Positions 1,053 to 44,882 of a stretch of 46,478 nt of DNA are shown here, one piece after another (the first letter of the stretch is position 1; every line of letters begins with the position of its first letter). The position numbers and the translations under genes were made by a program. This DNA is from a virus. Where the stretch lies: the UHGV virus genome UHGV-1365323, one strand, 5' to 3'. Below the pieces are notes generated by a model. The model searched no databases. It was not told where the DNA came from and was given only the letters and a program-made list of their open reading frames with translations.

Positions 1053-1081
1053 ACTATACGATGGCGCTCAATCTACGTCAA
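1053..1081 (-). promoter_or_regulatory. Leftward sigma70-type promoter, TTGACGTAGATTG-N-TATAGT; a reverse-strand copy of the conserved promoter family.
   Basis: Reverse complement of 1053-1081 reads TTGACG tagattgagcgccatcg TATAGT, almost identical to the element at 26403-26431. Confidence 0.5.
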
Positions 1082-7641: not shown

Positions 7642-8145
7642 ATGGATAAATATTATGTAGATGAATGGCTTATTGTTAATGCTGATGAAGGCTCTATTTT
7701 TTGGAGAAAGAGTAGAGGATTAGCGAAAGCAGGTGATTCTGCAATACATAAACATGAAATTACCTCAAGAGGAGGTGCGAAATATAAAGCTATCTCATTC
7801 GGAAGGAGAAAGTGGTTATTGCATAGATTCATATGGACGTATGTTAACGGTGAAATTCCTGATGGAATGATTGTTGATCACATTGATGGAAATACAAGCA
7901 ATAACTCAATAAAAAACTTAAGACTTGCAAGCAAGGCGGAGAGTTCCTTTAACAAAGGTATGTTTAAAAATAACACCTCTGGCGTAAAGGGTGTTTATTG
8001 GGACAAGAGAAACAAGAAGTGGATGGCATACGGAAGAATAAATGGAAAGATGAAAAATCTTGGCAGATACTCATCAATTGAGGATGCTAAAAATGCCGCA
8101 GAGGAATTTAGGCGAGTTAATTTTAAGGAATTTTATAGGCGGTGA
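7642..8145 (+). CDS. HNH homing endonuclease with a C-terminal AP2 DNA-binding domain.
   Basis: IDHIDGN...NLRL HNH core plus NTSGVKGVYWDKRNKKWMA AP2 signature. Confidence 0.8.
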   Translation: MDKYYVDEWLIVNADEGSIFWRKSRGLAKAGDSAIHKHEITSRGGAKYKAISFGRRKWLLHRFIWTYVNGEIPDGMIVDHIDGNTSNNSIKNLRLASKAESSFNKGMFKNNTSGVKGVYWDKRNKKWMAYGRINGKMKNLGRYSSIEDAKNAAEEFRRVNFKEFYRR

Positions 8146-17208: not shown

Positions 17209-17312
17209 TATGGATACTCCTGAAGAAATCTTGAAATACTGATGTATATATCATACACTACTCATGTCGCATAGGCGTGGAACCCGAAACGGCAAGCAAG
17301 CAACAATAAATT

Positions 17313-17376
17313 TAACGCCCTTGCCAGTATGGTTTTGTTGCAACCATGTTCCACCTGGCAGGGGCGTTACTTTTTT
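17313..17376 (+). promoter_or_regulatory. Two-tier hairpin: a 15-bp outer stem (TAACGCCCTTGCCAG / CTGGCAGGGGCGTTA) and an inner 6-bp stem (ATGGTT/AACCAT), followed by T6. It sits 10 nt upstream of the HNH start codon.
   Basis: Read directly; 14 of 15 outer stem pairs are complementary, and a T-run follows. Confidence 0.5.
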
Positions 17377-17386
17377 GGAGATAGCC

Positions 17387-17878
17387 ATGATTACGCAAAA
17401 AGAGCTTAGGTCGTTACTATCATACAACGCAGATAGCGGTGTTTTTAGATGGCTTGTTAATAAATCATTTTCCGTGAAAAAGGGTGATGTTGCCGGAAGG
17501 AAAAATAAAAGCAGCTACATCACAATAATGATTGATGGAGTCAGATATCAAGCAAGCCATTTGGCGTGGCTGTATGTAAATGGCGAGATGCCATCGAGGG
17601 CAATAGATCACATCAATGGCATTAGGAGTGATAATAGAATCATCAATCTAAGGGAGGCTACGCTATCTCAAAACGCAATGAATAGAATTAAGACTGTGAA
17701 TAACACGTCTGGGTACAAAGGTGTTAGCTTTCACAAGCAAAGCGGTAAGTGGCAGGCAAGCATAAAGATAAATGGGAAGCAGAAATATTTGGGCTTGTTT
17801 TTGTCTCCAAAGCAAGCCCACGATGCATATGTAAACGCCGCAAAAGTTATTTTTGGCGAATTTAGCAGGTTTTGTTAA
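17387..17878 (+). CDS. HNH homing endonuclease with an AP2 domain, inserted antisense within the tail operon.
   Basis: IDHINGIRSDNRIINLR plus NTSGYKGVSFHKQSGKWQA. Start moved to the internal ATG behind a GGAG Shine-Dalgarno, because the annotated N-terminus overlaps the hairpin. Confidence 0.8.
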   Translation: MITQKELRSLLSYNADSGVFRWLVNKSFSVKKGDVAGRKNKSSYITIMIDGVRYQASHLAWLYVNGEMPSRAIDHINGIRSDNRIINLREATLSQNAMNRIKTVNNTSGYKGVSFHKQSGKWQASIKINGKQKYLGLFLSPKQAHDAYVNAAKVIFGEFSRFC

Positions 17879-18348
17879 TCGCTATGCTCTGGTAGCTCTC
17901 TGTTTACAGTTTCATCAAGGAAGCTATACCATCTCTCATCAAGCTCAACAAGCACATCATCAAACTCATCCATGGAGTTATTGAGGGTTCTACAGATGAC
18001 ATTTCCAGTCCATGTGACGATGCCGCCATTGATGCTTGTCTGCACGGGGTAATCAGTAAAGTGCAAAGTCTGATTCTGTAATCCGCTGCCACCAAGATCG
18101 ATATCCATCGTGAACCATTCATTGCACTTGTTGAGATAATTTGGGCTTCTCAACCACTGGATAAAAGCCCGCTCCTGCCTGAGCGTGAAGACCCACGTAA
18201 GGCTCCATGACGCACAGATATCAGTTGTTAACTTCTGGAATATTGGCGCCCCTACCGCAGGCTGATCGCTGCGGAATGGGGTTTGAGTCGTCATGTTCTT
18301 GCTGGCACGCTGCGCAAGCGGTAGCCATGATGGGTAAGCTATAGCCAT
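17875..18348 (-). CDS. Minor tail protein (M-like), immediately downstream of the tape measure gene.
   Basis: Position and size. Confidence 0.45.
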   Translation of the reverse strand: MAIAYPSWLPLAQRASKNMTTQTPFRSDQPAVGAPIFQKLTTDICASWSLTWVFTLRQERAFIQWLRSPNYLNKCNEWFTMDIDLGGSGLQNQTLHFTDYPVQTSINGGIVTWTGNVICRTLNNSMDEFDDVLVELDERWYSFLDETVNRELPEHSD

Positions 18349-21300: not shown

Positions 21301-21635
21301 GAAACATCAAAGATCCGCTGCATAACTTCGGTCTGCGTCTCTCCAGTACGAACCGAGTTAGCTACCTTGTTATTTAGTTCAGTCCAGGCATCGGCGTAAC
21401 TCGCAACCTGTTGCACAGAAAGCGCCGCGAACAATCCCTTGGCAACGCCAGAAAGGCTGGACATTGTTCGTTCCATCGATCCAATAGAGCGCTCTGTCCT
21501 GTTTACACTGGCCTCAAGTCGCCCCATGTTCCCGCTAAGTCCATTTAGCATTGACTGCAATTCACGACTGCCAGCTGCTAACTGAGATGTGTCAATGCCA
21601 ACCTCATAGATAATGCCGCCAACTGTTTCTGCCAT
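18348..21635 (-). CDS. Tail tape measure protein, 1095 aa.
   Basis: Very long Ala/Gln-rich coiled-coil protein; glycine-rich segments; located between the chaperone and the minor tail genes. Confidence 0.85.
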   Translation of the reverse strand: MAETVGGIIYEVGIDTSQLAAGSRELQSMLNGLSGNMGRLEASVNRTERSIGSMERTMSSLSGVAKGLFAALSVQQVASYADAWTELNNKVANSVRTGETQTEVMQRIFDVSQATQSSLNGTATLYARLERGTRAYNTSAEDLVRLTTIINQGFAVSGATAQEAENAIIQLSQGIASGVLRGEEFNSVSEQGSRLMVALADSMGVSIGQLRAMAAQGQLTTDVVVKGLLSQGDAIGKEFANTTVSIAKGLQVAGNNVTKFFGENSTVKSFAAGFRDSVITISENLETLSGALIIVAGIMGSRYVGALAMSTAAKISDIAASRQQLIAENQQAQSALFAANATQRKAFADKEAALSSVALAQAEYNVAKGSAAEALALDALIAAKSRASAASLSLAQAENAQAAASARAASAARAASVGVGLARGALSLIGGPAGAATLAAGAIFYFWQKAQQAREESIRFADSLDQVNESMKAMNNTQLRGVIADANKSIQAQEEYVRDLEDSIDKLKGEIDDYTARGKLFGTTIDQGNGLLKIASDKTDELNQKSRDLANAKEKLARTQEAASEARRTLTNNMLTSMGVHDSLIEKGSTLERVQGAVARAFGLTADEINRANQAGQNFNPKSLQVSPPTEEADKMILSLEEQNQLLKIQDERQRAVTKARLEAQKVTDNPNQIARAAELAGQIYDLNEAEKARGKAQNDAQSAAQKAATEQENIANKLEELRQKSLLTAESTRELSREQSILVAQQSLGKGATQEQINLAGQYAAKAWDNANALKAQAEAEKQRVEAVKGFAALKSQTSPMFAVETNYQKDLAALNAYAVAYPQKIAEVEQARAAIEEQYRQQRLDAMWQEWSQQNAATQAAAAAFDAFGQTASNALTGVLTGSMSVSEALQSIGSTVLNAVINSFVQMGVEWLKSVIMGQVGMTAASAMAATQAQIIAAAMAPAAAMTSLATAGANAIPAQAGIVSTVGVAKAMSVAGALKNGGPAQAGSMYRVGENNLPEIFQASNGHQYMIPGDSGKVISNKDLTGGSSGGGLIINNNVYNSSSGATATSTATDNGDGSVTIETIVADIENGGPISQAITSNTTATRRATE

Positions 21636-22342
21636 TATTTTGCTCCTTTGCTTTTAGCGGCCTTTCTGGCGGCTTTCTCTTTCATTTTCTGTTTATTCAG
21701 CTTAGCCCGCTCATAAGACGCATCATACTGCTCGCGCGTCATGCCTTCCGGTTCCGGGTATTTTGATTTTATCATCTGCTGATACTCGGTCATGGTCAGG
21801 TCTTCGGCTTCCTCGCGGGTGATTCCGAAATGAGTGCGAGCAGAGATGATGTAATCCGACATTCTCAACTCACTGGTTGTGCGCTTTTGGTTTTCCGAGC
21901 GCTGAGGAACCTTGAGCGGAGACTTGCCGATGATGCCATGCTCCATCAGGTTTCGAGCAATAATAATAATGTCATTTACTGGCATTCGTCCGGTGACGTA
22001 CTTAACACCGCGCGGAGTCGGCTTCCATGATCCAATGAGCACCGAGATATCATCATCGCAACAGGACTGCATGATGAGGCAGGCAGCGCTGAGCACTTTC
22101 TTGCCATAGGCAGGACGCGACAGGATTTTTGCCACCTGAATCTGTGCGCCGTATGGCAATGACTGAATGGCGCCAAGTACAGCCGCGTATTCATAGCCAT
22201 TAAGCGTAGCATACAGCTCGACAATCTCTTTTGGTGAGCCAAGCTCATTCATCGCCGCAAATGATGGTTTGAAGAAAAAAGACTTGTCATCCAGGGAGAT
22301 GCGCATTTCTCCGATTTCTGTTAGCGGTGTGCGTTGTCTCAT
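21635..22342 (-). CDS. Tail assembly chaperone, 235 aa, with a Lys-rich C-terminus.
   Basis: Located between the major tail protein and the tape measure protein; overlaps the tape measure start. Confidence 0.5.
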   Translation of the reverse strand: MRQRTPLTEIGEMRISLDDKSFFFKPSFAAMNELGSPKEIVELYATLNGYEYAAVLGAIQSLPYGAQIQVAKILSRPAYGKKVLSAACLIMQSCCDDDISVLIGSWKPTPRGVKYVTGRMPVNDIIIIARNLMEHGIIGKSPLKVPQRSENQKRTTSELRMSDYIISARTHFGITREEAEDLTMTEYQQMIKSKYPEPEGMTREQYDASYERAKLNKQKMKEKAARKAAKSKGAK

Positions 22343-22397
22343 GTCTAAATCCTGTTTTCATAATGACGTAATTATACCATTGACAGGGAGTGCAAGA

Positions 22398-22431
22398 CTG
22401 ACGTAGATTGAAAGCATAAGGTGATTGAGGG
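22398..22431 (+). promoter_or_regulatory. Promoter-family copy (CTGACGTAGATTG...GTGATT).
   Basis: 13-mer identical to the other copies except for the first base. Confidence 0.4.
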
Positions 22432-22439
22432 TTTGACAT

Positions 22440-22574
22440 ATGAACGAGACTGATGCTGATTTGAGATTTTACATCGACCTGTACGTTGATTGCGGGTTCA
22501 CCTATGATGAGGCTGAGTTAATGGCGAAAAAATTACTTGCAATGGTAGGGGTGACATTCGATGAAGATAACTGA
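22440..22574 (+). CDS. Small acidic ORF, 44 aa, preceding the HNH gene.
   Basis: ATG just after the promoter; overlaps the HNH start. Confidence 0.3.
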   Translation: MNETDADLRFYIDLYVDCGFTYDEAELMAKKLLAMVGVTFDEDN

Positions 22575-23046
22575 TTGGTCAGATATTTTTTATTATTGCG
22601 ATGGGGCTATTTACTGGAAGATAAGAACCTCAAACAGAGTGAAAATCGGAAGCGAGGTGAAGACGGTGGGAGGCAATGGATATAAGATTGTTGGAATCTA
22701 TGGCGTCAAGCATCTTGTTCATCGCATCATCTGGGAAATGCATAATGGGAAAATTCCTGACGGAATGCAGATTGATCATATAGACCACAACAAAACAAAC
22801 AATAAGATAGATAACCTCAGACTTGTCACTCCAAAAGAGAATAATCACAACATGAAGTTCAGGGTAATAAACAAATCAGGTGTTACTGGTGTTTCATGGG
22901 ATAAACAACATAAAAAATGGGCCTCAAACATAAAAGTTGATGGTGTAAAGATTCATCTTGGATTGTTTTCTGACTTAAATATGGCCGCTGAAGCAAGGAG
23001 AAAGGCGGAGGTTAAATATAATTTTCATGAGAACCATGGTAAATGA
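22561..23046 (+). CDS. HNH homing endonuclease with an AP2 domain.
   Basis: IDHIDHNKTNNKIDNLRL plus SGVTGVSWDKQHKKWAS. Confidence 0.8.
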   Translation: MKITDWSDIFYYCDGAIYWKIRTSNRVKIGSEVKTVGGNGYKIVGIYGVKHLVHRIIWEMHNGKIPDGMQIDHIDHNKTNNKIDNLRLVTPKENNHNMKFRVINKSGVTGVSWDKQHKKWASNIKVDGVKIHLGLFSDLNMAAEARRKAEVKYNFHENHGK

Positions 23047-25583: not shown

Positions 25584-25976
25584 TCATTTGCACTTACTCC
25601 CGGTGACAACCCGAAACCACGGCTTTGCACTTCCATCAGGCTCTTCCACAAGGTCGCCTGTGCAGTCTGCCGTATCGAGTAGTTTCATCTGATTGTAAAG
25701 GGCCATCCACGGCTTGCTGCCATAGCCAAATGACTGCGACGCACCAGATGGCGCCCGATGGCTGGTAATGTATCTCCCGGCCGTATTTGAGGCGATCAGG
25801 ATAGATGCCCATAGCAGAATTGCATCCTGCCTGCATGTATCTTCAGGGTAATTAAGCTCAAGGCACTCTGTGATGCTCGCCACCAGGCACAGGATGCCCG
25901 TTGCGTCCGCCGTGGTGATGGTTACGCCTCTTGACGCCATGGCGGCGACAAGTTCACTTTCTGTCGGTGCTGCCAT
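25584..25976 (-). CDS. Head-tail connector (gp6-like); start set at the internal Met.
   Basis: GGGAGAG Shine-Dalgarno before the internal ATG; the annotated N-terminus is Arg/Cys-rich and atypical. Confidence 0.4.
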   Translation of the reverse strand: MAAPTESELVAAMASRGVTITTADATGILCLVASITECLELNYPEDTCRQDAILLWASILIASNTAGRYITSHRAPSGASQSFGYGSKPWMALYNQMKLLDTADCTGDLVEEPDGSAKPWFRVVTGSKCK

Positions 25977-26241
25977 TCTTTTTGCTCTCCCGAATCTTCC
26001 ACCACATCTCAAAAAGGTTTTTTGCCACCAGTGACAGCGCGCCAAGTATAGAAGCTACCGCAGCCCACTCGGTAATCGAATGGGGGATCATTGAGGCAAT
26101 GTATGATTGCGCTACTGGCGTTTGCTCCGCCACCTTCAGGCCAAGGCCCGTACCAATGGACGTATAACCGGCTTTGTCGATTACCTGGCCGACAGTGCCA
26201 CTAATTATCTGGTTTGCGGCGTGCTGAAGCGCGTCTCTCAT
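25954..26241 (-). CDS. Hypothetical protein, 95 aa, with a hydrophobic C-terminal helix.
   Basis: GGAGAA Shine-Dalgarno; first gene of the leftward connector operon. Confidence 0.4.
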   Translation of the reverse strand: MRDALQHAANQIISGTVGQVIDKAGYTSIGTGLGLKVAEQTPVAQSYIASMIPHSITEWAAVASILGALSLVAKNLFEMWWKIRESKKNGSTDRK

Positions 26242-26402
26242 TAATTATTCTCCGAATGATGAACTTCCAGCATCTGTACACCTGAACCAGCGAAAACGCT
26301 ATGACGATAACGCCGATTGCTATATCCAATTTCGCCGCCTTACGTTTTTCAGGACGGAACAGCGCGGGATGAGTATTGTTGGTTTAATTTTATCATAAAG
26401 TG

Positions 26403-26431
26403 TTGACGTAGATTGAGGGTGTCGCTATAGT
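26403..26431 (+). promoter_or_regulatory. Promoter, TTGACGTAGATTG-N-TATAGT; the best canonical copy in the family.
   Basis: TTGACG, 17-nt spacer, TATAGT. A second GACGTAGAA motif lies at 26435-26443. Confidence 0.6.
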
Positions 26432-26453
26432 GATGACGTAGAAACAACAATAA

Positions 26454-26765
26454 ATGTTAGAGGTGATGAAGATGAATGAATTCAAAGGTACGCCGGGGCC
26501 GTGGTTTGGAGATAACAGCAGGGCAATAGGGCCAAAATCAACAGAGGACGACCAGTCTTATGGAATGATTATTCCTGTCGGCTGGGTTGAGTTTGACCCT
26601 GAAGTTGAGGTTCAAGTTGCCAACCAACGAATGATGGCCGCTGCGCCGGAATTGCTGGAGGCTCTGGAGATGCTTGTAGTCTTCACTACGCCAACAAAAA
26701 GGAATGCCACTGCTTTGAGCAAGGCTTATGCCGCAATTGCTAAAGCCATCGGAGAATCACAATGA
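26454..26765 (+). CDS. Hypothetical acidic protein, 103 aa.
   Basis: GAGGTG Shine-Dalgarno; first gene of the moron unit. Confidence 0.45.
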   Translation: MLEVMKMNEFKGTPGPWFGDNSRAIGPKSTEDDQSYGMIIPVGWVEFDPEVEVQVANQRMMAAAPELLEALEMLVVFTTPTKRNATALSKAYAAIAKAIGESQ

Positions 26766-26885: not shown

Positions 26886-27701
26886 ATGACATCTCTCGGA
26901 AAAATTTACTCAGACAAAGAAACTCGCGGCGGAATCGTGGTCAACAAAGGTTATCAGGTTCCTGTCGACCAGCTTTATCTTGAGCCGGGGTACAACATCC
27001 GCGAAGCCGATGAGCAGCACGTTGAATACTTCGCGCAGTGCTGGGAATCAGGACAGCCAATCCCGGCGTTAACTGTTATTCCTGATGCTGCCGGAAAGCG
27101 CATTAAGATTCTTGACGGCCAGCATCGTTATCTTGGCGCGCTGCGAGCTATTGAGCGCGGCGTACCAATTGCGCGCATTGAGTGCAAAGACTTCACCGGC
27201 GATGAAGCGGATAAAATCGCCTTCATGGTGTCTTCCAGTCAGGGAAAGCAGCTTGACCCGCTTGAGCGTGCAAAGGCTTATGTGCGCCTGAAAGGCTTCG
27301 GATGGACGAATGAAGAAATCGCCAAAAAGGTAGGCCGCTCAGTTTCTGATGTACAAATGCACCTGTCACTTGGTGACGTACCTGATGCCATCAAGCAACG
27401 TATCAACGCAGGCCAAATCAGCTATGCCAACGCTGTTGCAGTGGCGCGCGAGCATGGAGATGATGCCGTTAACGTTATTGATGCTGCCGTTGAGGAAGCG
27501 AAAGCGCAGGGCAAGGATAAGGTGACGGCGAAAACGCTCAAGGCAAAAAAAGTTAAACCGATTGACCGCCTGATTCAGTTGCTGAAAGAAGCAGATCACA
27601 TGGTTGTCGCTGAGGGCCACGTGGCACAGGAAACGGAAGAATTTTTGCGCCTTCCTTCCGCTGAGTTAAGTGAAGTTCTGGCTATTCTGGAGAAGTTGTG
27701 A
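26886..27701 (+). CDS. ParB/Srx-like nuclease-domain protein.
   Basis: ParB N-terminal domain signature including ILDGQHRYLGA. Start moved to the ATG behind a GAGGAAAAG Shine-Dalgarno. Confidence 0.6.
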   Translation: MTSLGKIYSDKETRGGIVVNKGYQVPVDQLYLEPGYNIREADEQHVEYFAQCWESGQPIPALTVIPDAAGKRIKILDGQHRYLGALRAIERGVPIARIECKDFTGDEADKIAFMVSSSQGKQLDPLERAKAYVRLKGFGWTNEEIAKKVGRSVSDVQMHLSLGDVPDAIKQRINAGQISYANAVAVAREHGDDAVNVIDAAVEEAKAQGKDKVTAKTLKAKKVKPIDRLIQLLKEADHMVVAEGHVAQETEEFLRLPSAELSEVLAILEKL

Positions 27702-27838
27702 TGATTAACATCTGGCGCATGCTGTGGGCTGCTGTATGGAGCATAAGCGAGCGCACTGGAATAGGTCTTGGTCGATTTGCTCCGTGGGTTTTTCATCAAA
27801 TGATTGGCTGCGATCATGATTCTAAAAAGGTTAAATAA
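27701..27838 (+). CDS. Small ORF, 45 aa.
   Basis: Translationally coupled (GTGATG). Confidence 0.25.
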   Translation: MINIWRMLWAAVWSISERTGIGLGRFAPWVFHQMIGCDHDSKKVK

Positions 27839-28011
27839 TGAACCCCGAACAATTCATAGAGAAAAACCTGCGCGAAAAACTGCCAGGCATCGACAACGCG
27901 GCCATAGAGGCTGCAATTACCCACTACAGGCGCAACCAGAGTGAAAAGAAGGGCAAGATTTTCGATGAATGCCTGAAGGTTGCAAAACAACACATGATAA
28001 AGGTGAAGTGA
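27838..28011 (+). CDS. Small basic ORF, 57 aa.
   Basis: Coupled starts (TAAATG). Confidence 0.3.
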   Translation: MNPEQFIEKNLREKLPGIDNAAIEAAITHYRRNQSEKKGKIFDECLKVAKQHMIKVK

Positions 28012-28547
28012 TGAAATTAAAAATCAGCAAGTTAATTCTTGAAGGCGCGTTGATGTTCCAGGCCAAACAGGATGTTCGCTATTACCTGAATGGCATTTGC
28101 TTTATGCCTGATGGTCGCGTTGCCGCTACTGACGGTCATCGCGCCATGATTGCCAGTAAGCATGAAAATAAATTGAAAGATAACGTTATCGTGTCAGTAA
28201 GCAAGTCGCCAACTAAGCGTTATTCCTATGCGTTACTGGACACTGAAACAAACATTGTCACCTACCATGACGAACATGAAATCATGGTAGGCGCAGGTAT
28301 CTGCTCTGAGATTAATGGCCGATTCCCTGACATTGATCGTGTTATCCCAAAGCAGACTGCGGCAACAGAGCAAATCTGCTTCAACGCCAAATATCTGGCA
28401 GATGTAGAGAAGCTGGCAAAGCTGTTTAACCCGAAATTTGAGGCGGTTCGCTTTGACCTGAATGGCAACATCAACGCCGCCGTCGCAAACATCAGTGCGC
28501 CTACTGGCGAGACTGCCAAAGTTATCGTTATGCCAATGAGGATTTAG
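28011..28547 (+). CDS. Homolog of DNA polymerase III beta sliding clamp (DnaN) domains II and III, 179 aa, lacking domain I.
   Basis: QDVRYYLNG...ATDGHR, GRFPDIDRVIPK, FNAKYLADV and VIVMPMRI align collinearly with the E. coli DnaN motifs QDVRYYLNG...ATDGHR, GRFPDYRRVLPK, FNVSYVLDV and YVVMPMRL. The DnaN sequence is recalled from memory. Confidence 0.65.
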   Translation: MKLKISKLILEGALMFQAKQDVRYYLNGICFMPDGRVAATDGHRAMIASKHENKLKDNVIVSVSKSPTKRYSYALLDTETNIVTYHDEHEIMVGAGICSEINGRFPDIDRVIPKQTAATEQICFNAKYLADVEKLAKLFNPKFEAVRFDLNGNINAAVANISAPTGETAKVIVMPMRI

Positions 28548-28549
28548 TG

Positions 28550-28690
28550 ATGAGTGACAGCATTGACGAAGATGATGTTTCTTTTGATACTGCTTGCGAG
28601 ATGGGGTTAGCCCCAAAGGATTTTCCAGAACCAAAAGAGCGCGACCACTTGCATGAAAAAGAAGATAAGGTTTGGTTCACGCTAAAATAA
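28550..28690 (+). CDS. Small acidic ORF, 46 aa.
   Basis: Ends at the terminator. Confidence 0.3.
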   Translation: MSDSIDEDDVSFDTACEMGLAPKDFPEPKERDHLHEKEDKVWFTLK

Positions 28691-28693
28691 ACC

Positions 28694-28716
28694 AAAGCCC
28701 CTCGCGGGGCTTTTCT
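28694..28716. terminator. Bidirectional intrinsic terminator (AAAGCCCC-TCG-CGGGGCTTTT).
   Basis: 8-bp GC stem plus T-run. Confidence 0.6.
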
Positions 28717-34630: not shown

Positions 34631-34659
34631 TTGACGTAGATTCGTCAAGATGATTTTCA
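34631..34659 (+). promoter_or_regulatory. Promoter-family copy (TTGACGTAGATT); a second TTGACT lies 8 nt upstream.
   Basis: Exact 12-mer; the -10 hexamer is weak. Confidence 0.45.
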
Positions 34660-36198: not shown

Positions 36199-36708
36199 TC
36201 AATCCTGCTTCTCTTGTCTCACGCCGTTGCAAGCAAAATCTCCGTGAAGCTTCATCCTGGCTCGTTCTATAGCCATAGATGCCGATTCAATTGATGTGTG
36301 CCTGCCAAGCCATACGGTTTTTTGATTTATCTTTATTTGAGCACACCATTTATTATTCCTTTTATCCCAACTAACGCCCTTGATTCCTGATGTGTTTGTT
36401 GCTGGCTTGATGGTGTTCATTCCATTTTGAGATCTACTCGCAAGCCTTAGATTGCAAATCCTGTTGTCATCCCTAACTCCATTAATGTGATCCACCTCAA
36501 CATGTGGCATGTCGCCATATACATATAGCCAAGCCAACCTGTGAAGGTAAAACTTTCTGCGCTCAATTTCTATTTGTAGATATCCATTGCGCTTGCGGCT
36601 ACCTGCTATTTTCCCATCAATCTTTCTACCAGGCTTATTCCAGTAAAATAAACCACTTGACGGTGAGTAATGCAGTATCTTTTTTATGTATTCTTGATTA
36701 AGCATCAT
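36199..36708 (-). CDS. HNH homing endonuclease with an AP2 domain.
   Basis: VDHINGVRDDNRICNLRL plus NTSGIKGVSWDKRNNKWCA. Confidence 0.8.
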   Translation of the reverse strand: MMLNQEYIKKILHYSPSSGLFYWNKPGRKIDGKIAGSRKRNGYLQIEIERRKFYLHRLAWLYVYGDMPHVEVDHINGVRDDNRICNLRLASRSQNGMNTIKPATNTSGIKGVSWDKRNNKWCAQIKINQKTVWLGRHTSIESASMAIERARMKLHGDFACNGVRQEKQD

Positions 36709-37972: not shown

Positions 37973-38001
37973 CTTGACGTAGATTGAATCGTAAGCGATG
38001 A
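37973..38001 (+). promoter_or_regulatory. Promoter-family copy (TTGACGTAGATTG...GATGAT); a GATGTAGATAC motif lies downstream.
   Basis: Exact 13-mer. Confidence 0.5.
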
Positions 38002-38514: not shown

Positions 38515-39462
38515 TCAGGCGGCTTTCTTGTGTGTATCCTGCCACGCCTCACGCTGCTTATCGAGCTTTTCCTGCGTCCTCTCAAGTATCACCGGCTTGC
38601 CATCCATCACTAATGCAGGTATCTGAGCGCAGTGACAATTCCTGCGGTTTGCGCCTTCGCTGTAGAACTCATCAATCTCTTCGGGGGTGTAATACTTCCC
38701 GTGACGCGCGGCATGAGTGGCACGAGTGGTTTTCATCAGTGCCGACTGCCAGAGCATGATGGTTTCAATGCCAAGCGTCTCGCGTGCCTCAATCACTTCC
38801 TTGCGATTTGACTCACGCAGTACGCCAGTTATCTCGGTCTGCGCGATAGAACGTGCGTAACTATGAGATACGTCGGCGCGCTTGACGATATCGTCTTCAA
38901 TGTCACGAGGGTTGGCGCCGCGGGCAATGCCCTCCATTACAACCGATGCAACCTGCTGCCTGGTGTAGTCACTCAGCCCAGACCAGTCTGAGTACCCCTG
39001 AGTGTACGCCAGTTGCAGACGGTTAAGGTATGGCTCGCTATACAGGATGGCTGCCATAGGTCGCTGTTCAGCGTAGAGACTTGACAGGCTTGACAGTTCT
39101 GAGTTTGCTTTTTGAGTTCCGGCGGCCCATGCGTCGCCAATATGAATATTGGCCCACATCTGCCCATGGTCGAATGTATCGCCCTCAAGCAAAAACTGGT
39201 CAAGCAGGCGTTGCAGTTCATCCATGAACGACGCAGCACGCGAGGCGCTGAAATCATAATAATAATTACCACTTGATTCAGCATTCCTTTCGCTTACTGG
39301 AATGCTGCGGAACAGCTCAAGAAGAGCCGCGCGAATGCGTTTGTATCTGGAGGCGATATCCTTATCCATCTTATTAAGCCGTGGCGCTGATCCTAACGGG
39401 TCAGTCAGGCTTTGCGATACCCTTGGCTGTGGCAGGCGGGCGTTAAGTCTGAGGATTTTCAT
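38515..39462 (-). CDS. Head morphogenesis protein (SPP1 gp7 / Mu F-like).
   Basis: Position after the portal gene; size 315 aa. Confidence 0.55.
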   Translation of the reverse strand: MKILRLNARLPQPRVSQSLTDPLGSAPRLNKMDKDIASRYKRIRAALLELFRSIPVSERNAESSGNYYYDFSASRAASFMDELQRLLDQFLLEGDTFDHGQMWANIHIGDAWAAGTQKANSELSSLSSLYAEQRPMAAILYSEPYLNRLQLAYTQGYSDWSGLSDYTRQQVASVVMEGIARGANPRDIEDDIVKRADVSHSYARSIAQTEITGVLRESNRKEVIEARETLGIETIMLWQSALMKTTRATHAARHGKYYTPEEIDEFYSEGANRRNCHCAQIPALVMDGKPVILERTQEKLDKQREAWQDTHKKAA

Positions 39463-40487
39463 TTCACTCTTCCTCCATGCTTTAAAACCAATTCGGCCGC
39501 CTCATGGGTTGATATATTGAAAAATTCTCTCGACCCATCAAATCCGGTTAACCCTGCATTTTTATGTTTTATTTCTTTGTGTATCATTGATTCAGCCTTT
39601 CTCGCGTCAGCCCATGATGGGAATGAGTACTCAGCAACCACAGCGACAGTTTTCCCTGCTGATTTTGATATGCTTTTCATTCTTCTTTCAGTGTTGTTGC
39701 TTACACCTATCTTGCACGCCCCATCCATTTCAGCCACATATACACTTGCAGGTTTAAACCCATAAGCTGTGCATTTATTGCAACCGGACCCCCACAAGTG
39801 CGAGTTAGGTGTCTGATAGAAATCGCCATGGATATGACACGTAATACACACTTTTATTGAACTTTTCATGTAATTAACTTTCTCGTATGAGTATCTTCTT
39901 CCGTGAATTGCTCTTGCTTTTGTTATGAATGAGGCTTTATTATCGCTGAACTTTTCAGACAGGAGCTCAAGTTTGCATGATGGACAGCCATTTCCTGATA
40001 GATGGTTTGCCGGTTGTTGTGAAAAGTCACCATGCTTTTGACATGTTACCAACACCTTCCTGTGATTTCCTGAGTATATGCACTTGTCATATGAGTATTT
40101 ATCACCATGAACCATTTTAGCTTTAGAGATAAATTCATCATTTGATGTCATTAACTTTCTTGCCCGAACATCTCTGGCGCAAAGTTCGCAGCCGTAACCA
40201 GCAAGATGGCATTCCGCTTTTTGAGTAAAATCGCCATGTTTTTTGCAGGTTATCGTTACTTGTTTTTTCGTTCCAGAAAACACAGACTTATCATAAATGT
40301 ATTTATCGCCATGTTTTTGCCTGGCGCGAGAAATGAAGTCTTCCGTGGTGAGTCTTTTTGCCATGATTAACCTCGTAGTAGGTTCGTAGACTGAGGATGC
40401 AGCAGGATGTCTACGTTCATCTTTTCGGGCGCCCCCTAGCTGCACATTTATTATATCATCACTCCTCTTGTGATGGGTCATCCTCAC
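39459..40487 (-). CDS. Putative homing-endonuclease-like protein: three tandem zinc-ribbon repeats (KHGDKY.YDK...C.KHGDF.Q...HL.G.GC..C) plus a C-terminal T5orf172/GIY-YIG-like domain.
   Basis: Threefold internal repeat read directly from the sequence. C-terminal YVAEMDG-CKIGVS...RR...H...G.REFF matches the T5orf172 pattern. The gene is AT-rich. Confidence 0.5.
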
Positions 40488-42483: not shown

Positions 42484-42512
42484 TTGACGTAGATTCTAGC
42501 ATGGCGTAGATT
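42484..42512 (+). promoter_or_regulatory. Promoter-family copy, TTGACGTAGATT-N11-TAGATT.
   Basis: Exact 12-mer; TAGATT at the -10 position with a 17-nt spacer. Confidence 0.5.
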
Positions 42513-42849: not shown

Positions 42850-44331
42850 TCATCTCCTGCTCCTTCTAATCCATCCAGAGCCACGCTGTACGATGTGATC
42901 GCCAAGGCCATAGCGCAAACTATCTGTGGCGTGGTTGTGCTTGTCGATGATATCAGGAAGTATATTTCCCGTGAGCTTGTCCACTTTGTAGCTGTAAAGA
43001 GTAAACTCCTCAATGACAGTCTTACATCTTTCGTGAACAAAAATCCTGTCACAACCCCTGAGCCATGTAATTCCGTCCTCAATGCTTCCAGGCCACTTTG
43101 CGCACGGGTGGATATCAAAACCTGAGCGCTTTATATGGCTTATTGTTTCTGGCCTTGCGCAGTCACCATACCATCTGTATTTTTCGGAGCCGGGGAATGC
43201 CAGTCGCATAGCCTCTGGCGTATCAGTTATCTCAAGACCAACCTTTGCAAAGTCGCGGTAGATATACAGGTTTCTTCTTCCGCCGCCCAAATCCTCGACA
43301 TAAGATTCAGTTGCTGCCGTAGCATCCTGCGAGAAACCAAAATCAATACCATAGTAAGGCCCGCCCCAATCTGGCGATGGCTCGAAATCAAGAGTCTGCC
43401 ACTTACCACCAAGTACGGCCTCATCTGATCGCCTGTTAAACAACCCCTCATAAACCCATAGATAGCGGTCATAATCTACCGCCTTCATCTGGTTCATGTG
43501 CTGCTTCAGTTCTTCAGTGAACCACGGGTTGTGGACGTAGTTAACATTGACAACAACGATGTCATCATCCTGATATATGCCATCTACCATCTTGTCGATG
43601 TAAGGCTCAACAAAGTTAGTCCATGTCGGGTCCGTCTCTTTGTTCGGGTTAAAAACAATAATAATTTCAGAACCAGCAGCGCGGACTGTCGGGATTAATG
43701 TATCCCATGACACCTGACTGATATTTTCGGATTCTTCACAGAACACATCAGTAAGGCCAGCCATACCTTTGATGGCGGTTATGTTTCGCCAAAGACCACG
43801 AAAAACAAACTTTGACCTCGTTGAATGGTGGGTTATCTCACCATCAACGCAACGGTATTCCTGAGTGTGCCCCTTCCTGCTTATCTCATCGACCAGCTCG
43901 GCATAGCTTGACTCTTTGATCGAGTTCTGTATCTCACGGAAACAACCAACGCGACTGTTGCGGAATCTTGCTTTTTCGATAAGGTAGGATATACACGACC
44001 TCGATTTTGCTGACCCCCTGCCACCATAGAACACTTTAAAGCGACGAGGATAAAGTAATAGCTCCATTCGCTCAGGAATTAATATTGTTGGCTCTTCATC
44101 AGTTTCAGATACTCCGGTGGCTGTCATCTTAAGGCGCTTTACGACATTTGGAGCGCCATCCTGGAGTAAGTTATCTACAAGCCCAAAAACTGCTGATTCT
44201 GGCTTTGCAGTTGAGTTGCCAACTACCTGTTCAAGTTTTTCGATTGCCACACTTGAGAGTCTTTTTCTAGCCATGATTACAAAACTCCCCGTGATGTTTA
44301 TTTCTGAACTCCGCCACAGCTCTCTCAGCAT
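42850..44331 (-). CDS. terL: Terminase large subunit.
   Basis: Walker A FYGGRGSAKS; C-terminal nuclease-like acidic residues; 493 aa. Confidence 0.9.
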   Translation of the reverse strand: MLRELWRSSEINITGSFVIMARKRLSSVAIEKLEQVVGNSTAKPESAVFGLVDNLLQDGAPNVVKRLKMTATGVSETDEEPTILIPERMELLLYPRRFKVFYGGRGSAKSRSCISYLIEKARFRNSRVGCFREIQNSIKESSYAELVDEISRKGHTQEYRCVDGEITHHSTRSKFVFRGLWRNITAIKGMAGLTDVFCEESENISQVSWDTLIPTVRAAGSEIIIVFNPNKETDPTWTNFVEPYIDKMVDGIYQDDDIVVVNVNYVHNPWFTEELKQHMNQMKAVDYDRYLWVYEGLFNRRSDEAVLGGKWQTLDFEPSPDWGGPYYGIDFGFSQDATAATESYVEDLGGGRRNLYIYRDFAKVGLEITDTPEAMRLAFPGSEKYRWYGDCARPETISHIKRSGFDIHPCAKWPGSIEDGITWLRGCDRIFVHERCKTVIEEFTLYSYKVDKLTGNILPDIIDKHNHATDSLRYGLGDHIVQRGSGWIRRSRR

Positions 44332-44779
44332 CTTCTTTTGACGAAGACCTACCTACCGTATATTTTTTCCCAAAAACCCTGCAATGCGCCTTCCATTTAT
44401 TTTTCTCTGCATCCCAACTCACACCTTTTACTCCTGACGTATTTGTCGATGGTTTACCAACATTCCATCCGTTTTCATTATTACTTGCTTCTCTCAGGTT
44501 GCAGATTCTGTTATCTGTCTTCACGTTATTGATGTGATCTATTTTCCCATTGGGCCACACACCATAAATGTAAAGCCACGCAAGCCGATGAGCTTTGTGT
44601 AAAGACTTATCGATGCGTATATCTATATAGCCTGACTTATTCTTACTGCCCGCTGAATTACCAACTCTTACGCTTTTTGAGGCGCGCTGAACCCATGTGA
44701 AAACACCAGTATCTGGATTGTAATGCAGTAGATGCTTAAGTCTTTCCTGAGTGAGAGCGAGCTCTTTTAATGATGGCAT
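44267..44779 (-). CDS. HNH homing endonuclease with an AP2 domain, lying between the two terminase subunit genes.
   Basis: IDHINNVKTDNRICNLRE plus NTSGVKGVSWDAEKNKWKA. Start set at MPSLKEL by homology of its leader to that of the HNH gene at 36199-36708. Confidence 0.75.
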   Translation of the reverse strand: MPSLKELALTQERLKHLLHYNPDTGVFTWVQRASKSVRVGNSAGSKNKSGYIDIRIDKSLHKAHRLAWLYIYGVWPNGKIDHINNVKTDNRICNLREASNNENGWNVGKPSTNTSGVKGVSWDAEKNKWKAHCRVFGKKYTVGRSSSKEDAERAVAEFRNKHHGEFCNHG

Positions 44780-44882
44780 TCTTGAATCCTCGGTTACAGG
44801 CGGTCTATTGATTGGATGCAGCAGCCCGGAGACCAATCCGGGCAGGGAGCTACCCTTTGCCGCATTAATTATTATAAATCAG

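Follow-up and report, generated by a model that had tools for sequence, protein, structure and literature searches.

Short homologs of the beta subunit of DNA polymerase III (Pol III), the sliding clamp DnaN, that cover the clamp's second and third domains were described in phages in 2011 (Kazlauskas and Venclovas; PMC3201878), and a paper of 2016 asked what such stand-alone polIII-beta homologs do in viruses that lack a polymerase (PMC4889955). Earlier reports stopped at the statement that these proteins cover the second and third domains and viewed them as probably dispensable acquisitions from the host. The gene is also present in annotation: gp15 of phage Bcep43 is recorded as "DNA Pol III b subunit fragment", "DNA polymerase III beta subunit" is the name used in many GenBank records, the product is called a "putative beta-clamp protein" in Serratia phage Eta, and a Klebsiella phage paper employs the clamp gene as a signature gene (PMC9901506). 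Here, we analyze one such gene in the virus genome UHGV-1365323, a stretch of 46,478 nucleotides (nt) that is referred to as the window and that, in its whole 46.5-kb length, is an apparently complete siphovirus genome. The open reading frame (ORF) at 28011-28547 on the forward strand, whose coordinates were confirmed, encodes a protein of 178 amino acids (aa), the short clamp. A truncated DnaN homolog of this kind "appears undescribed" according to the original prediction made on this DNA, a claim contradicted by the 2011 report (PMC3201878), by the note on Bcep43 gp15 and by the beta-subunit names in GenBank; the gene is a further member of a known, uncharacterised family. Family, size and stand-alone phage-encoded status are the same as in gp15 of Bcep43 and Bcep781 and in the homologs of 2011, and nothing essential differs (tblastn gave 29% identity to Bcep43 gp15 over 98% of the query).

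Two other products invite comparison. In E. coli, a UV-induced 26-kDa protein named beta*, made from an internal start of dnaN around residue 135, was reportedly described by Skaliter, Paz-Elizur, Livneh and colleagues in 1996 and is said to be a trimeric active clamp with a complete domain III and no domain I. The short clamp resembles beta* in the absence of domain I and in its nearby start, but it additionally lacks half of domain III together with the interface; the complete domains II and III of a beta*-type protein are not found in it, the first half of domain III being missing. Like the phage peptide inhibitors of the beta clamp (for example Twort gp168, PDB 7evp), the short clamp is a phage product directed at the clamp system.

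The relationship with DnaN was evaluated against the actual E. coli K-12 protein (P0A988, 366 aa) and with a family profile built from 78 diverse short-clamp members. BLASTP aligned the short clamp with E. coli DnaN at E 1e-12 and 32% identity, phmmer retrieved enterobacterial clamps from the PDB at E 3e-13 to 1e-11, and hhalign matched the family profile to DnaN with 99.4% probability (E 2e-21). Five motifs are common to both proteins (QDVRYYLNG, ATDGHR, GRFPD..RV.PK, FN..Y and MPMR), and those that the original prediction had quoted are indeed present in the K-12 sequence. Curated family models score the protein below their cut-offs, with 20.2 and 14.8 bits for PF02767 and PF02768 (cut-off 27) and 40.2 bits for TIGR00663 (cut-off 137.65); the match to Pfam DNA_pol3_beta_3 covers profile positions 64-121 of 121, and the Pfam model of DnaN domain I found no match in the 178-aa protein. 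Structure prediction with AlphaFold2 from the alignment of the 78 sequences produced a model with a predicted local distance difference test score (pLDDT) of 96.9 and a predicted template modelling score (pTM) of 0.91, a single-sequence model (pLDDT 37) having been set aside as unusable. The modelled protein has the DNA-clamp/PCNA-like fold of DnaN, which is shared by short viral proteins in BFVD at template modelling (TM) scores of 0.75-0.90, and weaker short matches (TM 0.46-0.50) were found in phage Seurat and in an actinophage. Altogether, the homology to domains II and III of DnaN without domain I was borne out, including the significant profile similarity on which that proposal had been made to depend.

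The same profile alignment places residues 1-116 on DnaN 126-253, that is, all of domain II from its first strand, and residues 117-178 on DnaN 312-366, after a single clean gap of 58 residues (DnaN 254-311). The missing block is the first beta-alpha-beta-beta-beta half of domain III, and by this mapping the short clamp is made up of domain II and, from domain III, just the second half with this topology. The two parts of the gene are as follows.

28011..28358, forward strand: domain II part of the short clamp (residues 1-116, DnaN 126-253), from the hhalign mapping and the AlphaFold model, containing QDVRYYLNG, ATDGHR and GRFPDIDRVIPK.

28359..28547, forward strand: domain III part of the short clamp (residues 117-178, with the stop codon; DnaN 312-366, the second half of that domain), from the hhalign mapping, containing ICFNAKYL and VIVMPMRI.

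These boundaries correct two earlier estimates, in which the alignment started at M135 and domain III was shorter by about 40 residues: the N-terminus aligns with DnaN V126, in strand 1 of domain II, and the loss amounts to the 58 residues given above. The spacing between P106 and N125 is 19-27 residues in 78/78 members versus 79 in DnaN, and nearly all members begin about 20 residues ahead of DVRYY and end 1-3 residues past MPMR. The model contains just two long helices (residues 7-16 and 126-139) versus three in the matching parts of DnaN, with a loop carrying a conserved proline, followed by a short strand, in place of the second helix of domain II. On its domain-3 side, the beta dimer interface comprises Q265, R269, I272, L273, E298-E304 and D307 (PMC12269063), and all of these residues fall within the deleted DnaN 254-311, the block that is missing in 78/78 members. 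Both sides of the head-to-tail dimer interface are thus absent, one with domain I and the other with DnaN 254-311.

In DnaN, the pocket for the clamp-binding motif (CBM) lies where the first half of domain II meets the second half of domain III. It consists of 18 residues distributed in subsite I (R152, L155, T172, G174, H175, R176, L177, P242, R246, V247, V360 and M362) and subsite II (H175, N320, Y323, V344, M362, P363, M364 and R365) (PMC11139829). All 18 positions map to residues present in the short clamp, and since the interface block is gone, the two deletions take away the ring-closing parts and spare the complete CBM pocket. Across the family, the mean conservation of the pocket is 0.73 versus 0.38 elsewhere, a value as high not being obtained in any of 100,000 permutations (p < 1e-5). 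Half of the 20 most conserved positions belong to the pocket (R23, L26, T40, G42, H43 and P106, conserved at 87-100%, together with Y128, M174, P175 and R177, conserved at 88-96%), and 11 of the 18 pocket positions are conserved at at least 74% in the 78 diverse members.

The protein is also basic. Its isoelectric point (pI) is 8.7, the family median being 8.5 with 62% of the members above pI 8, versus 5.25 for E. coli DnaN and 5.56 for the equivalent DnaN fragment. Lysine or arginine is conserved in the family at positions 19, 65, 70, 134, 137 and 142; position 19 corresponds to DnaN H148, in the DNA-contacting loop beside Q149, and both the H148-R152 loop region and Q149 are retained. Compared with DnaN, then, the short clamp has in common the five signature motifs, the complete CBM pocket and a C-terminal MPMR followed by one residue, whereas it differs in length (178 vs 366 aa), in the absence of domain I, of the first half of domain III and of the dimer interface, in having one inner helix fewer (in the model), in being basic and not acidic and in scoring under the Pfam and TIGRFAM cut-offs. 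Several of these traits were not encountered in the literature consulted, namely the exact 58-residue half-domain deletion with its loss of the interface, a pocket that is fully retained and preferentially conserved, and the basic shift, and the same holds for the size of the family and its position between cII and O in lambdoid phages, described below.

An exhaustive HMMER search of 1.84 billion representatives gave 2124 matches, of which the top ~150 consist almost wholly of 170-220-aa proteins aligned over their entire length, full-length DnaN appearing only from about E 1e-11. About 140 clusters at 50% identity consist of proteins of 170-220 aa aligned from end to end, and tblastn detected a homolog in 281 phage records with hosts that include Salmonella, Escherichia, Vibrio, Klebsiella, Proteus and Burkholderia. 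The short clamp matches phrog_3007 over its full length (E 6e-59; residues 1-178 on positions 1-186 of the 190 in the profile), and in being phage-encoded, of about 170-220 aa and with this match it has the features of the short phage polIII-beta homologs. phrog_3007 carries the label "RusA-like Holliday junction resolvase", which has been copied in RefSeq NC_042037, NC_071151, NC_048112 and others; judging from the similarities given above, this label is a propagated annotation error on a clear beta-clamp derivative.

In the Klebsiella phages RSU-F4K5, ZC2 and VLCpiS13b, Aeromonas phage pIS4-A and Vibrio phage pYD38-A the clamp region is ~92% identical at the nucleotide level. Many databases call a 192-aa form of the gene, from the ATG at 27969. 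The 178-aa form is preferable because the ATG at 28011 overlaps the stop codon of an upstream 57-aa ORF (TGATG) and is preceded by an AAGGTG Shine-Dalgarno sequence, and because the alignment of distant homologs of 170-195 aa begins at residue 1. The pairwise ratio of nonsynonymous to synonymous substitution rates (dN/dS) is ~0.11 among relatives with unsaturated dS, as expected of a gene that is functional and under purifying selection; a pseudogene or a gene-calling artefact is ruled out by this value and by the uniform architecture of the family.

Based on the available evidence, it can tentatively be hypothesized that the short clamp is a non-ring, DNA-associated adaptor that captures CBM proteins during phage replication. 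It would form no ring of the DnaN type; its basic helix side would sit on DNA, as an open adaptor, and the conserved pocket would capture proteins that carry a clamp-binding motif. The replication genes of the window are those for two helicases, a primase, ExoVIII, a Sak4-like ATPase and an SSB; neither a DNA polymerase nor a clamp loader nor an integrase turned up in the ORFs of at least 90 aa that were scanned. Because the phage encodes helicases, primase, SSB and recombination proteins and no DNA polymerase, the most plausible clients would be the Pol III core of the host or further clients of the host clamp, which may be held at phage DNA early in infection with no need of the host clamp loader.

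Processivity factors that work without a closed ring are known in the herpesvirus proteins UL42 and UL44 (PMC4889955), and the likeness proposed here is that of a clamp fold without closed ring or loader. There is no sequence relationship between them, the herpesvirus factors have two full domains, and UL42/UL44 partner with a virus-encoded polymerase, whereas this phage is without one. The comparison with UL42/UL44 looks for a basic DNA-binding face and a binding site for a polymerase peptide on an open clamp fold; what was observed in the short clamp is the pI of 8.7, the conserved lysines and arginines and the retained pocket. Possible too, if a shade more doubtful, is the broader view that short clamps are the first non-ring, loader-independent beta-clamp derivatives, a "pocket on DNA" that hijacks host Pol III or another clamp client by way of the client's clamp-binding motif and acts as a monomer or else as a symmetric dimer paired through the half-domains.

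Several points weigh against such an adaptor. In the literature searches, no functional study (binding, oligomeric state or phenotype) was found for any short-form member. Residues 120-124 of the model, the first strand of the half-domain, are unpaired and outside any sheet, which suggests that the half-domain may pair with something. The pocket motifs are the most conserved motifs of DnaN in general, and therefore part of the conservation of the pocket may be attributable to folding. Bcep1-like phages carry the short form together with their own polymerase (PMC3201878), so that recruitment of host Pol III cannot be its universal role. Furthermore, with a high-affinity pocket the protein would be a competitor of host beta for Pol III, on which the phage itself depends. 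Finally, a search for a phage-encoded client bearing a CBM gave no convincing candidate and only weak ones. The sequence QMHLSL in the ParB-like protein of the same locus, which fits a loose CBM pattern and is present in 47/48 relatives, lies in a helix of the helix-turn-helix (HTH), where ParB proteins generally have a similar pattern; QMGIL at the N-terminus of the Sak4-like protein is an unconvincing match; and QMKLL, in an opposite-strand neighbour gene (25584-26045), is conserved only because the relatives are close. The cytotoxic protein gp48 of mycobacteriophage Waterfoul is a full-length clamp of 376 aa and not relevant here.

Next in order is a decoy or sponge, already among the options of the original prediction and still viable, though on balance rather unlikely. 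In this case a soluble pocket would titrate host clamp-binding proteins off host beta and thereby shut down or re-program host DNA transactions, the possible targets being the loader's delta subunit, Hda, MutS/MutL, Pol II/IV/V or a defence or toxin that depends on the clamp. The retention of the pocket as the most conserved feature and the loss of the ring-closure elements agree with it, as does the observation that monomeric beta binds delta ~50 times tighter than dimeric beta (PMC11139829), and the gene appears to be under an early-type promoter that is common to other small units. The decoy nevertheless leaves the basic shift in pI and the conserved lysines and arginines on the helix side unexplained, and a general block of Pol III-beta would harm a phage that is without its own polymerase; moreover, a 5-residue beta loop that delta also touches is probably in the deleted block, its location not being stated in PMC11139829.

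A true sliding clamp of unusual stoichiometry is improbable. Clamp domains have an internal two-fold pseudo-symmetry, and half-domains paired between two protomers might form one complete pseudo-domain, two such dimers closing a tetramer ring of six domains around DNA (4 x 1.5 domains = 6 domains), a proposal that would also account for the lone half-domain with an unpaired edge strand in the monomer model. The ring of known clamps is lined by 12 inner helices (PMC12269063); in the model the second half of domain II lacks its inner helix, so that the lining of the channel would be incomplete. Besides, the tetramer requires head-to-head contacts that no known clamp uses, and no clamp loader is encoded in the window as far as the scanned ORFs show. 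The PCNA-like homotrimer that had been suggested earlier is unlikely because the deletion of DnaN 254-311 takes away the interface block. The takeover originally envisaged, in which the fragment would pair with host beta through a retained domain III surface and open or poison host clamps, agrees with the general homology to DnaN and with nothing further, and it is very improbable, with no structural basis for pairing through the native interface as judged from the alignment, since the listed interface residues of domain 3 are all in the missing 58 and domain I is gone as well.

In the window, the clamp gene comes sixth among the ORFs of a rightward unit that lies antisense between structural genes and comprises, in order, a promoter-like site (26403), ORFs of 103 and 38 aa, a ParB/KorB-like gene, ORFs of 46 and 57 aa, the short clamp, an acidic ORF of 46 aa and a hairpin (28694). 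The features of this unit, apart from the clamp gene, are listed below together with the copies of a 9-mer that accompanies the promoter.

26403..26431, forward strand: sigma-70-type promoter-like site, TTGACG-17 nt-TATAGT, found by a consensus scan (10/12 matches).

1072-1080, reverse strand, and 22399-22407, 26404-26412, 26434-26442, 34632-34640, 37975-37983 and 42485-42493, forward strand: copies of TGACGTAGA.

26454..26765, forward strand: first gene of the unit, 103 aa, matching phrog_1273 (E 8e-22) with no Pfam hit, conserved upstream of the ParB-like gene in relatives.

26886..27701, forward strand: ParB/Spo0J/KorB-family protein of 271 aa, with a ParB N-domain followed by an HTH.

27698..27838, forward strand: small ORF of 46 aa in a variable slot, matching phrog_20955 (E 3e-7).

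27838..28011, forward strand: protein of 57 aa, matching phrog_4439 (E 2e-23), whose stop codon overlaps the clamp ATG (TGATG).

28550..28690, forward strand: small acidic ORF of 46 aa counted from the ATG at 28550, from the ORF list and the sequence.

28694..28713, no strand assigned: GC-rich hairpin with T-runs on both strands, from a terminator scan of both strands.

The bracketing of the unit by a promoter (26403-26431) and a terminator (28694-28713), as originally proposed, was confirmed in that both sites exist, and the promoter is strikingly conserved. At least 15 IMG/VR relatives, with clamp proteins of only 69-93% identity, match the 71 nt at 26380-26450 completely (100% identity); synonymous sites are saturated in those that are further removed, and the segment is far better kept than the flanking coding DNA. 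The 9-mer TGACGTAGA occurs over the -35 hexamer (26404-26412) and just 3' of the -10 hexamer (26434-26442), and its 7 copies in the window compare with 0.17 expected by chance. In 6/7 copies it is part of an extended -35 motif, TTGACGTAGATT(G/C), the copy at 22399 having C for the first T; the copy at 26434 differs. The TTGACGTAGATT copies are located 30-60 nt upstream of small transcription units that are antisense within blocks of structural genes, and the motif looks like a phage-specific promoter or operator family. Since it recurs before other small units, the clamp unit is probably one of several co-regulated, probably early, units and not the isolated moron that had been proposed. The ParB/KorB-like protein may conceivably bind this motif.

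The assignment of that protein to the ParB family, also part of the original prediction, holds, as its N-domain and HTH align with Spo0J, ParB and KorB (Pfam HTH_ParB 4e-11 and KorB 2.4e-6, phrog_1033 1e-86, TIGR00180 5e-11, and Spo0J 1vz0 at E 1e-10 over residues 50-193), while nothing indicates the nuclease activity implied by the term "ParB/Srx-type nuclease"; its box II reads GQHRY where others have GERRY. Related loci were retrieved with a sub-alignment of the members that share DVRYYLNG. The ParB-like gene is present in 48 of them, on the same strand and 2-3 genes upstream of the clamp, and relatives share this layout of the unit, at times with a DNA methyltransferase gene filling the variable slot (a 310-aa enzyme at 21474-22403 in Klebsiella phage RSU-F4K5; other small ORFs in ZC2 and Bas81). 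In 21 related loci a member of the 57-aa family immediately precedes the clamp (position -1), and 8 further loci have one at -2 or -3, in each case on the same strand; the 57-aa ORF is predicted to be translationally coupled to the clamp gene. The idea that this ORF encodes the missing 58-residue half-domain separately was rejected by inspection, as it has its own phrog_4439 match and is helical by eye. Downstream, the ORF at 28550..28690 gave no PHROG, Pfam or PADLOC match and is missing in RSU-F4K5, so it is not in all relatives. The hairpin is kept in relatives with compensating changes in the loop and is a putative bidirectional terminator that separates the unit from the capsid genes converging on it. 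PADLOC detected no defence-system similarity for any gene of the clamp unit.

In other genomes the gene is found in different surroundings. Some 20 lambdoid temperate phages from IMG/VR share with Hafnia phage yong1 the gene order cI, cro, cII, short clamp, an O-like initiator and a DnaB-like helicase/replication protein, with rexB-rexA ahead of cI in yong1; Pfam supports these neighbours (Peptidase_S24/HTH, Phage_CII at 9e-42 and DnaB, with a DnaB/DnaC-like gene after the O-like one). The clamp gene occupies 6001-6537 in L081, 5989-6534 in L097 and 4001-4537 in L107 (Hafnia phage yong1), and its place in the replication module of these lambdoid relatives likewise speaks against a moron. In phage lambda itself, the slot between cII and O presumably holds no clamp gene. 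In Skarpretter the gene adjoins primase/helicase, dUTPase and Dam/Dcm methyltransferase genes, and in Bcep43 it is antisense within head genes. Early and replication functions are the recurrent theme of these neighbourhoods, and no neighbour is conserved across all subfamilies, the best being a Dam-type methyltransferase within 4 kb in 4/13 subfamilies. Dam/Dcm-type methyltransferases were also observed beside the clamp in several distant loci.

Outside the clamp unit, the window carries five paralogous phrog_99 HNH endonuclease genes (7642-8145, 17264-17878 and 22561-23046 on the forward strand, 36199-36708 and 44267-44836 on the reverse strand) and one further endonuclease gene (39459-40487, reverse strand), a load of probable homing endonucleases that is unusually high for a 46-kb phage. 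In RSU-F4K5, a gene at 17223-18338 among the neck genes is annotated as "transposase/putative RNA-guided endonuclease", and no comparably long ORF exists in the corresponding part of the window.

Every bacterial polymerase and a large number of repair proteins are handled through one hub, the beta-clamp pocket, which is also an antibiotic target. A family that retains only this pocket on a basic, non-ring scaffold could be a natural minimal CBM receptor, useful as a tool and in drug screening, or, alternatively, it could represent a new way for polymerase-less viruses to commandeer the host replicase. If true, hijacking by a non-ring clamp derivative would answer the question raised in 2016 on stand-alone polIII-beta homologs in phages without a polymerase. 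Although the takeover mechanism first suggested for this gene is unsupported, the function of the short phage clamps is a real question, and since members of the family are present in phages of E. coli K-12 (Skarpretter and Bas81 of the BASEL collection), it is directly testable.

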